IMG/VR virus record: IMGVR_UViG_3300037991_001422
Span: 1-24,894 of that record
Source of the DNA: a virus
Taxonomy: Duplodnaviria; Caudoviricetes
Strand: one strand, 5' to 3'
Length of the DNA: 24,894 nt
Part shown: piece after piece, positions 4,564 through 24,894 of the stretch
Position numbering within the stretch: position 1 is the first letter of the stretch
How the letters are laid out: each line of letters starts with the position of its first letter
Position numbers and translations under genes: made by a program
Notes under the pieces: generated by a model
Database searches by the model: none
Told to the model about the DNA's origin: nothing
Seen by the model: the letters and a program-made list of their open reading frames with translations, nothing else

Positions 4564-5454
4564 TTAAGCCTCATATTCAGCCTGAGACACCAGGGCAGTA
4601 AATGTACCGGAGGCAGTTTTAATTATGCTCATTGTTGTGGCACAAATTGCGTTTGCTGTACCTGCTGAGCTAGGAGCACCACCAACATATCTAACAGTAA
4701 CGTTAGAAGTTGTTCCGTCAACTTGAACACCAGCAAGCTTGTAAGCAGTTGATCCGTATTGAACAATACCGACCACGGTCATAACTTGACCAGTAGACAT
4801 AATACTGTCAAGAGTGGTGCTACCGTCTCCTCTAATGTTATAAGTATAGTCACTTATAGTGTTGCCTTGCAGCCAATAAACAGCTTGCGTTTTTACATTA
4901 AAAGGGATTGCGCCACCACCTGAGTTAGGAATAATAGTGGCCTTTTCTTTTACTCGCTCAATGGAGATAGCTTCGTTAAAAGCAACGTCACCAGTAAAAG
5001 TACCACCTGATGCACCAATACCTGCGTTGTTATCGACGTATTGCTTTGTTGCAGCCTTAAGGTTAGCGTCAGGATCTCCTGAAAGAACCAGATCACCAGT
5101 TAAAGTACCACCAGCCAGCGGCAGTTTAGTGGCAATGCTGTTAGTAACAGTTGTAGAGAAGTTAGCATCATCTCCGAGAGCAGCAGCAAGCTCATTCAGT
5201 GTGTCAAGAGTTCCAGGTGCTGAATCGACCAGAGCAGCATTTGCTGCTTGAACAAAAGCAGTTGTTGCGATTTGAGTTGTGTTAGTACCTGTAGAGGCTG
5301 TAGGAGCTGTTGGAGTTCCAGTAAAGTCTGGATCATTAAGATTAGCTTTAGCGTTGAGAGTATTACCGCTAGGAATTGTACTGACATCAACGTCTACATC
5401 GCCACTGCCAGTGTCATAAGTAAGAGTATTAACGCGGATTTTTCCGTGTGCCAT
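4564..5454 (-). CDS. Secondary tail fibre protein (296 aa)
   Basis: PDFTGTPTAPTASTGTNTTQIATTAFV and APGTLDTLNELAAALGDDANFSTTVTN are typical phage fibre repeats (P2 gpH-like). Also LPLAGGTLTG and AATKQYVD shaft motifs. Confidence 0.85.
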   Translation of the reverse strand: MAHGKIRVNTLTYDTGSGDVDVDVSTIPSGNTLNAKANLNDPDFTGTPTAPTASTGTNTTQIATTAFVQAANAALVDSAPGTLDTLNELAAALGDDANFSTTVTNSIATKLPLAGGTLTGDLVLSGDPDANLKAATKQYVDNNAGIGASGGTFTGDVAFNEAISIERVKEKATIIPNSGGGAIPFNVKTQAVYWLQGNTISDYTYNIRGDGSTTLDSIMSTGQVMTVVGIVQYGSTAYKLAGVQVDGTTSNVTVRYVGGAPSSAGTANAICATTMSIIKTASGTFTALVSQAEYEA

Positions 5455-22851: not shown

Positions 22852-22907
22852 TTGTTTAAGGAGTTAGTAAATTGTAACAGACTCCGAACGTTCAGATAAA
22901 AAAGTTT

Positions 22908-23006
22908 TGTGGTCTATCCCACCGTCTAGACGGCTAAGGGTGTCCCTCGTAAGGGGCCAAAGCCAATGACTGGGGGAGGAATCGAACCTCCCCTACACCG
23001 TCAGTC
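22908..23006 (-). ncRNA. Putative structured RNA in the capsid leader: mini tRNA-like element plus downstream hairpins
   Basis: GACTG-ACGGTGTA-GGGGAGG-TTCGATT-CCTCCCC-CAGTC-A, followed by GGCT..CCCT-TACG-AGGG..AGCC and GTCTA..TAGAC / GTGG..CCAC pairings. Confidence 0.55.
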
Positions 23007-23108
23007 GATCTCTTTATACACTACACCACGGTAGCGCAGGGCATCAGTATGATAACGCTCTGCGCGTTTCTTCTGTGATGCAAGGAAACGAATAAGATTG
23101 ATGGACAT
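23001..23108 (-). CDS. 35-aa YRGVxY peptide (DUF4278 / glutamine-riboswitch downstream peptide-like), not in the ORF track
   Basis: Manual translation: MSINLIRFLASQKKRAERYHTDALRYRGVVYKEID*. The LRYRGVVY motif is present and the ATG lies just 3' of the riboswitch. Confidence 0.85.
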   Translation of the reverse strand: MSINLIRFLASQKKRAERYHTDALRYRGVVYKEID

Positions 23109-23111
23109 GAG

Positions 23112-23184
23112 TTCGTACAAGATTAAACCTAACCCCCGTTCCATGGTTAGGCAGCATGCGTCCCGAATGGGATGAACGTACGAA
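23112..23184 (-). promoter_or_regulatory. Glutamine-II riboswitch (Downstream-peptide RNA motif)
   Basis: Minus strand CGTTCA-TCCC-ATTC-GGGA-CGCATGCTG-CCTAACC-ATG-GAACG-GGGGTTAGG. P1 CGUUC/GAACG, P2 UCCC/GGGA, pseudoknot CCUAAC/GUUAGG, GGAACGGGG core; upstream of a YRG peptide. Confidence 0.88.
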
Positions 23185-23186
23185 TA

Positions 23187-23300
23187 CTACTTCTTTTTCT
23201 TTTTCTTTTTACCAGAGGATTTCTCGATCAGAAGCTCCGTCCGGTCCTTTCGGTTTTTAAGTTTGTGGAACAATCCCACATGACTGGGTAGTTGTTTCAT
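23187..23300 (-). CDS. 37-aa basic micropeptide with poly-Lys tail, not in the ORF track
   Basis: MKQLPSHVGLFHKLKNRKDRTELLIEKSSGKKKKKKK*; ATGA overlap with the upstream ORF. Confidence 0.6.
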   Translation of the reverse strand: MKQLPSHVGLFHKLKNRKDRTELLIEKSSGKKKKKKK

Positions 23301-23458
23301 TTTGCGTACTTACGCTTCTTGGCAGTCTGTGCTGACCGCCTAAAATTAGCAGCAGTAGGAGCACCTGGAGCACCAGGCTTCCTCATCTTCTCACCACTGC
23401 CAGCAGCAATGCGCTTGCGCTTGGCGTGGATGTTAGCATAAAGTCCAGGTTTAGCCAT
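23297..23458 (-). CDS. 53-aa basic protein, not in the ORF track
   Basis: MAKPGLYANIHAKRKRIAAGSGEKMRKPGAPGAPTAANFRRSAQTAKKRKYAK*. GLYANIHAKRKRI is a motif I recall from aquatic phage small proteins; overlaps both neighbours. Confidence 0.85.
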   Translation of the reverse strand: MAKPGLYANIHAKRKRIAAGSGEKMRKPGAPGAPTAANFRRSAQTAKKRKYAK

Positions 23459-23519
23459 AACGTTTTTTCTTAGGCGGACGGCCTTTTTTTGTACCGTAAG
23501 TTCCTTTTCCTTGTGGCAT
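23451..23519 (-). CDS. 22-aa basic micropeptide with AT-hook-like motif, not in the ORF track
   Basis: MPQGKGTYGTKKGRPPKKKRYG*; starts 2 nt after the previous stop and overlaps the next start by 8 nt. Confidence 0.7.
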   Translation of the reverse strand: MPQGKGTYGTKKGRPPKKKRYG

Positions 23520-23521
23520 AA

Positions 23522-23755
23522 TCAGCATTTCCATTTGCGTAGTGCAAGAGCCTTCCTTGTGGGACGACCCTTGCTGTCTTTCATTGGTCCTTTGACACCG
23601 CCCATGCGAGCACAAAAGGACCTCTTGCGGCCTGCAGCCTTTTTAGTTTTAGGGTTAGGAGCTGGGGGTTTTAGGTTAGCCCCCTCCTTCGCTTTGAAGT
23701 GTCTCCTGCCCGCAGCGGTCAAACCGCCAGAGGGACTTTTGTGTTCTTTACGCAT
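23522..23755 (-). CDS. 77-aa basic hypothetical phage protein
   Basis: TGATG-coupled to psbA. GGLTAAGR...NLKPP...RKRSFCARM...PTRKALALRKWKC resembles a recurrent aquatic phage family. Confidence 0.85.
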   Translation of the reverse strand: MRKEHKSPSGGLTAAGRRHFKAKEGANLKPPAPNPKTKKAAGRKRSFCARMGGVKGPMKDSKGRPTRKALALRKWKC

Positions 23756-24834
23756 CAGCCAATAGCGGGGGCATTGAGTGCGACAGGGGTGGTCTCAGCG
23801 GCTGCGAGATCCAGGGGGAAGTTGTGGGCATTACGCTCATGCATGACTTCCATACCCAGACCAGCTCGGTTGAGGACATCAGCCCAGGTATTCACCACAT
23901 GACCTTGACTCTCAACAATGGATTGATTGAAGTTGAATCCATTGAGGTTGAAAGCCATGGTGCTGACGCCGAGGGCGGTAAACCAGATGCCCACAACAGG
24001 CCACGCTGCGAGGAAGAAGTGCAGAGAGCGGCTGTTATTAAACGAAGCATACTGGAAAATCAAACGTCCGAAGTAACCGTGGGCAGCGACAATGTTATAT
24101 GTCTCTTCTTCCTGCCCAAACTTGTATCCATAACTCTGCGAGACCTCTTCGGTAGTCTCCCTAATGAGGGACGACGTGACGAGAGATCCGTGCATAGCTG
24201 AAAAGAGAGCACCACCAAATACCCCAGCAACACCAAGCATATGGAAAGGGTGCATGAGAATGTTGTGCTCCGCTTGGAAGACAAGCATGTAGTTAAAGGT
24301 ACCTGAGATTCCGAGGGGCATTGCATCAGAGAAAGATCCTTGTCCGAAGGGATAAACCAGGAACACGGCAGAGGCAGCTGCAACAGGTGCAGAGTATGCC
24401 ACAAAGATCCAAGGACGCATACCTAGTCGATAGCTAAGTTCCCACTCTCGTCCCATGTAAGAATAGATACCAATGAGGAAGTGGAAAACGACAAGCTGGA
24501 ATGGACCCCCGTTGTAGAGCCATTCATCAAGTGTAGCAGCTTCCCAAATTGGGTAGAAGTGTAGTCCGATGGCATTGCTGCTCGGAACGACGGCTCCCGA
24601 TATGATGTTGTTTCCATAGAGGAGGGAGCCTGCAACGGGTTCACGGATTCCATCAATGTCAACAGGCGGTGCGCCAATGAAGGCGATAATAAAACAGGTT
24701 GTGGCTGCCAGTAAGGTAGGAATCATCAGGATACCAAACCAGCCTACGTATAGACGATTGTTTGTAGAGGTTACCCAGGAACAGAACTGCTCCCAGTTAC
24801 TCGTCTGACCTCTTAGTGAAGTAATCGCTGTCAT
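23755..24834 (-). CDS. psbA: Photosystem II reaction centre protein D1 (auxiliary metabolic gene, 359 aa)
   Basis: Unmistakable D1: [65 protein letters not shown] plus a 15-aa C-terminal extension; no intron. Confidence 0.99.
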
Positions 24835-24894
24835 GAGTATGTATGTTGTGACAGTTGGCGCAGATTACCCTGCACTTATCTATCTCATCCATAA
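24797..24894 (-). CDS. 3' end of an HNH-type endonuclease gene (truncated by the window edge)
   Basis: Manual translation ..[41 protein letters not shown] is a typical HNH C-terminal motif; overlaps the psbA start by 38 nt. Confidence 0.75.

Follow-up and report, generated by a model that had tools for sequence, protein, structure and literature searches.

A slot for tRNA-shaped RNAs and a self-complementary leader precede the capsid gene of T7-like cyanophages

INTRODUCTION

What drives the capsid gene of a T7-like cyanophage in which no late promoter is evident upstream of it? Prochlorococcus and Synechococcus are killed in large numbers by T7-like cyanophages, which are abundant, and in the literature that we searched we found no explanation of how the capsid gene is driven in such phages. 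The question is raised here by a virus record (IMGVR_UViG_3300037991_001422; 24,894 nt, ∼54% complete), referred to as the window, which carries T7-like cyanophage structural genes on the minus strand. The interval studied lies between psbA, encoding the photosystem II D1 protein (24834-23755), and the T7-like major capsid gene (gp10A-like; 22851-21757; Pfam E 9.2e-69; phrog_267). All its parts, like every window feature given below with coordinates, are on the minus strand. The original prediction had read this interval as one undescribed module that senses nitrogen through glutamine.

MATERIALS AND METHODS

Capsid-gene loci were collected from IMG/VR with four queries, namely the window (80 of 595 kept), Syn5 (50), S-CBP4 (80 of 597) and the Roseobacter phage CRP-171 (80 of 587), the last being the query for the Roseobacter group; isolate genomes were added to these. 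Loci with less than 150-170 nt upstream of the capsid gene were excluded. Co-occurrence was counted on loci with at least 1200 nt upstream, the flanks of the Syn5 and Roseobacter groups being only 1500 nt long. Riboswitch copies were counted with a profile whose training set was 14 copies verified by Rfam, and the leader covariance model was built from 49 close sequences. Four RNA runs were used as assembled contigs, mostly of relatives, from which ends, strand and level are unreadable; three of them have a contig gap at 22986-23093, to which we give no evidential weight.

RESULTS AND DISCUSSION

Composition of the psbA-capsid interval

The elements proposed for the interval, a glutamine-II riboswitch, five small ORFs and a tRNA-shaped RNA on the capsid-ward strand, are all present. 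As predicted, no terminator-like site was found on the minus strand within the interval; the terminator scan gave one, a hairpin at 21737-21718, located 3' of the capsid gene. The description of the five ORFs as coupled holds for the four that abut or overlap, while the fifth, encoding the YRG peptide, is set apart by the riboswitch.

The four ORFs following psbA code for small basic proteins. The first, whose start overlaps the psbA stop codon, encodes a DUF6321 protein of 77 aa with 24 lysine and arginine residues (23522-23755; Pfam E 1.5e-27), and is an optional, mobile gene. It is followed by a 22-aa micro-ORF of the MPQG type (23451-23519), optional and also present in Roseobacter-group phages, and by the gene for a 53-aa protein, 'MAKP' (23297-23458; phrog_16028, E 3e-29), which is optional and very widespread; 7995 of the 8000 scored candidates for this family passed. 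The 37-aa lysine-rich ORF (23187-23300) is rare and the least supported of the small ORFs: by alignment score it was found in 1 of 43 close loci, with a weak match in two more, and it is skipped in one RNA-run contig. Matches in the ESM Atlas were to DUF6321 clusters only. Single-base codon differences between the small ORFs of the window and homologues of at least 70% identity were biased towards synonymous ones (585:93, 164:28 for the 22-aa ORF, 1024:208 and 55:7), these homologues being chosen by protein score and related, hence not independent, and the 37-aa ORF having a single one.

Among loci with at least 1200 nt upstream, the DUF6321 gene was present in 18/43 of the closest loci and in 13/63, 0/35 and 0/61 of the S-CBP4-, Syn5- and Roseobacter-group loci, respectively. 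The corresponding counts were 18/43, 36/63, 0/35 and 14/61 for the 53-aa gene, and 13/43, 0/63, 1/35 and 15/61 for the 22-aa gene. The basic ORFs sit ahead of psbA in S-TIP37 and S-SBP1, are absent from a locus with 95% capsid identity to the window (L037), and have homologues in Pelagibacter phage HTVC168P; three of the four also occur in SAR11 or Roseobacter phages. The riboswitch was detected in 44/44 of the closest loci and in 14/63, 14/35 and 0/61 of the three other groups, and the slot and leader described below occur without it in 49/63 S-CBP4-group and 21/35 Syn5-group loci. From this presence and absence of parts across groups we concluded that the interval is not one conserved cassette. 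The co-conservation that had been expected is seen for the riboswitch and the YRG ORF, an ORF with a [YC]RG motif lying downstream in 99/99 riboswitch copies (the script searched for that motif), whereas most of the parts occur independently.

The original prediction had also named untranslated small ORFs as evidence against it, and on this point it stands better. Homologues of three of the small proteins are translated during infection by S-TIP37, a laboratory phage with the same layout: Supplementary Data 1 of PMC12695635 lists 3 peptides for the DUF6321 homologue, 9 for the homologue of the 53-aa protein, and 14 peptides with 906 spectra for the YRG counterpart. The basic micro-genes (23187-23755; homologues in L006 and L093) are found between the scaffold and capsid genes of cyanobacterial, SAR11 and Roseobacter T7-like phages. 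Our guess would be a nucleic-acid-binding role in head assembly.

The glutamine-II riboswitch and the YRG peptide

The glutamine-II (Downstream-peptide) aptamer, RF01704, spans 23127-23181 with 56.1 bits (E 2.7e-11; gathering score 33). It was the sole Rfam match at the gathering threshold in the whole window, and at E up to 10 the psbA-capsid interval gave, besides it, only chance-level matches; 20 related loci yielded glutamine-II and tRNA matches only. The AUG of the YRG ORF (23001-23108; 35 aa) is 19 nt 3' of the aptamer. A longer, 47-aa reading from 23144 was rejected, as it starts inside the aptamer and relatives begin at the 23108 position. The peptide is DUF4278-like and has the motif LxYRGxxY, a wording that comes from our own alignment, in which Y26, R27, G28 and Y31 are invariant (29/29 peptides); this alignment offers no conserved stretch usable for a search among hosts. 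The window peptide itself had no match to Pfam PF14105 (DUF4278); 23 of the 29 related peptides matched at E up to 1 (best 5.1e-6). The riboswitch likely gates translation of this peptide. We did not find a conserved OFF helix or expression platform among its copies (7/48 versus 11%).

This unit is of a host type already described, and in this respect the system is not the undescribed one that had been proposed. The type 2 glutamine riboswitches of marine picocyanobacteria, as presented in PMC6212724 and PMC2864571, precede IF17-like DUF4278 ORFs, and the window shares with them the aptamer and the LxYRGxxY ORF. Glutamine riboswitches have been published in other marine phages (PMC9004378), and the 2010 alignment in the supplement of PMC2864571 already includes the copy from P-SSP7 among its rows. 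The window differs from the described systems in three respects. IF17-like proteins belong to DUF4278, whereas the window peptide itself matched no Pfam family. Its ORF ends in a tRNA mimic, while three of the five parsed copies from a Synechococcus single-cell genome end, by eye, in a hairpin and a T-run. The gifB-type control region has an NtcA box upstream, whereas none of the 12 matches in the window to GTA-N8-TAC, the consensus of this box, falls inside 22852-23755. The unit is thus known in kind; its peptide is abundant in infection, and in P-SSP7 the corresponding 17-aa YRG ORF (L003:3072-3125) is unannotated in the RefSeq record.

In S-SBP1 (L005:7160-7340, where it is annotated as gp32) and in a second locus (L007:212-390), the glutamine-II aptamer has a 54-aa ORF nested within its first hairpin loop; both aptamers score below the Rfam gathering threshold.

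A slot for tRNA-shaped RNAs

The tRNA mimic (23006-22967) consists of an acceptor-like stem of 5 bp (23006-23002/22972-22968), a 7-bp T-arm (22993-22973) with a canonical T-loop cap, and a discriminator-like A at its 3' end (A22967); it has no anticodon arm and no CCA. Neither ARAGORN (0) nor Rfam (RF00005) reported a tRNA gene in the window, and no cloverleaf with an anticodon arm was found. What is found, an acceptor-like stem stacked on a T-arm with a T-loop, ∼12 bp in all and within a longer transcript, is common to the tRNA-like processing elements. Folded alone, the window sequence gives a z of only −1.9, so that the support for the mimic comes from comparison: of 48 distinct T-arm loci, 45 can form an acceptor-like stem of at least 5 bp, with unrelated stem sequences, compared with 21% of shuffles.

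The same position is filled differently in other phages. Among the 76 closest loci we observed the T-arm mimic in 45, a CACCUCAG-loop hairpin in 29 and a tRNA-Gly in 2; NATL1A-7 also has a tRNA-Gly annotated at this position. The 76 S-CBP4-group loci had the mimic in 5, the hairpin in 54 and a tRNA in 7, with 10 unparsed; the 43 Syn5-group loci had 17 mimics, 10 hairpins, no tRNA and 16 other or unparsed fillers. The S-CBP4-group tRNAs include tRNA-Trp and an odd 'Cys(aca)' tRNA. Irrespective of the filler, the distance from its loop to P1, the first stem of the leader, is nearly fixed: 15-16 nt in 41/43 T-arm loci, 16-17 nt in 64/65 hairpin loci, 15-16 nt in 6/6 tRNA loci, and 15-17 nt in 111/114 overall. 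On a capsid tree built with FastTree from 107 of 154 rows, the filler changes type at least 29 times; thinning of the rows favoured differing labels, and recombination contributes. Of 120 viral matches to the CACCUCAG-loop hairpin, 78 had enough downstream DNA to be assessed, and in 77 of these a capsid gene follows. We rejected this loop as a host motif, since 72 matches in 596 Gb of genomes are fewer than the ∼280 estimated by chance; the lone Synechococcus match is itself a phage capsid leader.

As different tRNAs and non-tRNAs occupy the slot at one spacing, it is shape and not decoding that is conserved. We infer from this that the slot would be a host processing site; one spacing for a tRNA, a mimic or a third hairpin would pinpoint such a site to the single base. 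A further suggestion from this is that certain phage tRNA genes that occur alone are cut signals more than decoders. RNase Z cuts after a CCA-less end. RNase P cleaves tRNA-like RNAs, phage ones included (PMC11143913), and cyanobacterial tRNA maturation involves RNase E (PMC8682795). Compared with the tRNA-like processing elements, the slot is distinct in its fixed pre-capsid position, in being filled by a tRNA, a mimic or a phage-specific hairpin, and in that the product of the predicted cut would be the downstream mRNA.

The slot tRNA of L157, L173, L183, L189 and L194, which ARAGORN calls Cys(aca), has an anticodon loop that is atypical, and this tRNA may be in decay.

The mimic is also where the glutamine signal could meet the capsid gene. 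A YRG ORF adjoins the mimic in 27 T-arm loci, and in all 27 its stop codon is located no earlier than the first base of the acceptor-like strand (two of these loci were mis-parsed, with the stop still inside); this provides a physical route from glutamine to processing. Such a link is possible only for the loci with the stop in the mimic. A reading close to the original one takes it further: glutamine would turn on a peptide inhibitor of glutamine synthetase and would steer capsid output through the mimic, all parts forming a single nitrogen-sensing cassette. The presence of the riboswitch in every one of the 44 closest loci with at least 1200 nt upstream, within 400 nt of the capsid start in all 29 of them that have a T-arm, is in keeping with this, as are the stop codons within the mimic and the DUF4278 matches of the related peptides. 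In the proteomics of PMC12695635, moreover, the YRG peptide of wild-type S-TIP37 drops at the final time point (1.91 to 1.18e9), the sole one of seven neighbouring proteins to fall, as its six neighbours rise, including the capsid protein (19.9 to 35.6e9); in the nblA mutant the peptide stays higher and the capsid protein lower. Nitrogen was not a variable in these experiments, however, and the opposite courses fit separate control of the peptide and its neighbours. Further, the basic ORFs, slot and leader exist without the riboswitch, the basic ORFs even outside cyanophages, and Syn5 has the mimic without it. In loci whose slot carries the other hairpin, the end of the YRG ORF may precede the stem or be as much as 1.3 kb away, and the IF17-like proteins of Prochlorococcus are reported in PMC6212724 to be without the region required for enzyme binding in Synechocystis. 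We therefore regard a single cassette as rather unlikely.

The core of the capsid leader

Two bases past the slot begins a structured element (22964-22860) that was missing from the original prediction and is the least known part of the interval. Its core is the stem P1/P2 (22964-22932), with an invariant C opposite AYAM in a 1 × 4 loop and a UNCG-type cap; a small stem, P3 (22922-22909), follows. The P1/P2 pattern was found in 80/80 close loci. A stricter core pattern was present in 65/68, 52/59, 31/35 and 46/49 distinct leaders of the four phage groups (194/211 in total), compared with just one of the 844 control windows. T7, in which a terminator likewise follows the capsid gene, is without the core motif. 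The pairs of the stem covary, and two in P2 change on both sides (in 30/49 and 31/49 sequences). The covariance model found one copy each in the window and in P-SSP7 and recovered the S-CBP4-group copies; at E up to 1 it matched neither T7 nor the elements of Syn5, the Roseobacter group and SAR11, so that the kinship of these latter elements rests on the pattern parse. Three readings of the bulged hairpin were dismissed by eye: a self-cleaving ribozyme, a C-loop and an S8 site.

Neither the slot hairpin nor the leader corresponds to an Rfam 15 family, and we found no description of them in the literature that we searched, with one set of candidates compared by description only. Fremin et al. 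2023 (PMC10690425) list five candidate RNAs upstream of PHA00201 capsid genes (DNAVirus_231, 3706, 3823, 3864 and 5397), all at most 25 nt upstream of these genes; two of them, DNAVirus_3706 (43 nt) and DNAVirus_3823 (80 nt), are mostly marine. One of these candidates may cover part of the leader; in their descriptions there we found no tRNA slot or dimer.

In the Roseobacter group (L093, L225-L304), the C/AYAM hairpin lies ∼150 nt before the capsid start within a larger multi-stem RNA that has conserved unpaired stretches and neither palindromes nor a slot. In L011, L019 and L023, an ORF of ∼95 aa, whose motif we take to be LAGLIDADG-like, parts the leader core from the capsid gene by ∼375 nt; the second of the palindromes described next was not found in these three loci.

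Two palindromes in the leader

The leader contains two stretches that are self-complementary to their centre. Palindrome 1 (22934-22921) has outer arms common to P1 and P3, and palindrome 2 (22896-22883) includes one G·U pair; the 3' arm of the latter has an alternative partner at 22864-22860, immediately before the start codon. Of 143 distinct cyanophage leaders, 117 had both, as against 0 of 39 from the Roseobacter group; 5 of 30 Syn5-group leaders had neither, and the first was lacking in 16 of 50 S-CBP4-group leaders. For palindrome 1, 97% of cells are paired with 35 double changes, a value reached by 0/500 shuffles. Its innermost pair is UA in 24, AU in 10, CG in 5 and GC in 3 sequences; this covariation goes beyond the needs of a simple hairpin.

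In an unbiased centre test, the best hairpin was picked regardless of its loop and the 4-nt centre was then scored. The centre of palindrome 1 was self-complementary in 19/20 of the closest, 1/4 of the S-CBP4-group and 17/21 of the Syn5-group leaders, and that of palindrome 2 in 28/32, 11/11 and 9/18, respectively, against 237/5300 (4.5%) in capsid coding DNA. On the capsid tree the centres change sequence at least 30 times with symmetry kept. Internal mismatches were G·U in 17/22 and A·C in 2/22 cases (control, 6/58 and 17/58), a bias that points to pairing in the sense RNA, with T-rich 5' and G-rich 3' flanks themselves favouring G·U. Support for the alternative pairing at 22864-22860, which would hide the start region, varies from group to group (27/51 versus 29% of shuffles, 36/36 versus 56%, and 7/22 versus 24%).

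Two other explanations of these palindromes were weighed. According to the first, the leader works as DNA, as a late phage promoter or as symmetrical binding sites. Dyad symmetry, which the leader has, is typical of sites for dimeric proteins. The phi10 promoter of T7 occupies the same position before gene 10, and part of P3 is similar, by eye, to the beginning of the T7 gene 10 leader; P-SSP7 has its middle/late boundary between gene 28 and gene 29, the capsid gene (PMC7885011). On the other hand, centres that keep changing while staying symmetric, and mismatches strand-biased to G·U, speak against a DNA site, and the leader element is single-copy. No word of at least 12 nt is shared between the 260 nt that precede the capsid gene and the remaining sequence, either in the window (about half a genome) or in Syn5, and this lowers the probability of a promoter; P-SSP7 has just three such matches, all inside genes. 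The longest repeated word of Syn5 outside the tail-fibre gene (at 4929 and 44797), presumably the promoter of its polymerase, is not in the leader. A role as DNA is in our view distinctly unlikely.

The second takes the palindromes for ordinary hairpins within one molecule, or for products left behind by template switching; the leader would then remain a monomer and serve as a stabiliser or as an operator bound by protein, forming no dimer. Palindrome 1 does fold on itself in the window fragment and in the consensus, and the invariant C/AYAM loop, kept in the palindrome-free leaders of the Roseobacter group, resembles a protein-binding site. The predicted homodimer energy, −15.3 kcal/mol compared with −14.8 kcal/mol in that palindrome-free group, does not separate the two, and 12/100 shuffles equal the value of the window leader. 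However, a hairpin has no need of a self-complementary loop, yet at least 10 different centres recur, and the neighbouring hairpins (the T-loop and the P2 cap) have ordinary loops. The probability of the own hairpin in full leaders averages at most 0.25. We consider this explanation doubtful, though one to be kept in mind.

The simplest use of a centre-perfect palindrome in an RNA would be pairing with a second copy. Retroviral dimer-initiation sites, for example, are RNA homodimers formed through palindromic pairing. The HYER1 and HYER5 ribozyme homodimers, as described in PMC12990946, have in common with the leader covarying, G·U-tolerant self-complementary stretches. The window leader is different in having two palindromes, in belonging to a phage mRNA, in placing them between helices rather than in a hairpin loop, and in that its dimer is predicted. 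Natural mRNA dimers are described in PMC12990946 as seldom documented.

Proposed mechanism

We favour, with moderate confidence, a reading in which the interval has three separable parts: optional basic micro-genes, a host-type riboswitch-YRG unit, and a capsid leader that is independent of the riboswitch and comprises a likely-cut mimic and an mRNA predicted to pair with itself. It builds on the parts as observed, their covariation and independent distribution, and the fixed spacing of the three slot fillers. The slot together with the self-complementary leader is the new part; as an RNA structure it is well supported by the comparative sequence evidence, which is strong for the self-complementarity, and as a mechanism it is a proposal.

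In this proposal, a transcript would read through from the psbA region, RNase P would cut where the acceptor-like stem begins on its 5' side (23007/23006), and a second cut, by RNase Z or RNase E, would fall just past A22967. The cuts would release a capsid mRNA that begins with a stem-loop. P1 would stabilise the freed mRNA, taking the role that the phi10 promoter has in T7, and the mRNA would pair intermolecularly through its two self-complementary stretches. In the subgroup with the stop codon in the mimic, a ribosome finishing the YRG peptide might melt the acceptor-like stem, and for this subgroup high glutamine would then slow the cut.

A more far-reaching version, which we offer tentatively and think has a limited chance of being right, is that T7-like cyanophages have replaced the T7 capsid promoter by a tRNA-punctuation site and an abundance-sensing leader. 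The mRNA would dimerise via the two palindromes, strand exchange would free the start region, and capsid synthesis would come on past a threshold; in the lineage of the window, the glutamine riboswitch would tune the cut via the ribosome stopping in the mimic.

Two features of the window lie apart from this interval. HNH-type ORFs are present on the minus strand at 24797-24892, where the cut end of the ORF overlaps the psbA start, and at 873-1202 among the late genes. The 12 GTA-N8-TAC matches exceed the 4.9 expected, and 0/100 shuffles had as many.
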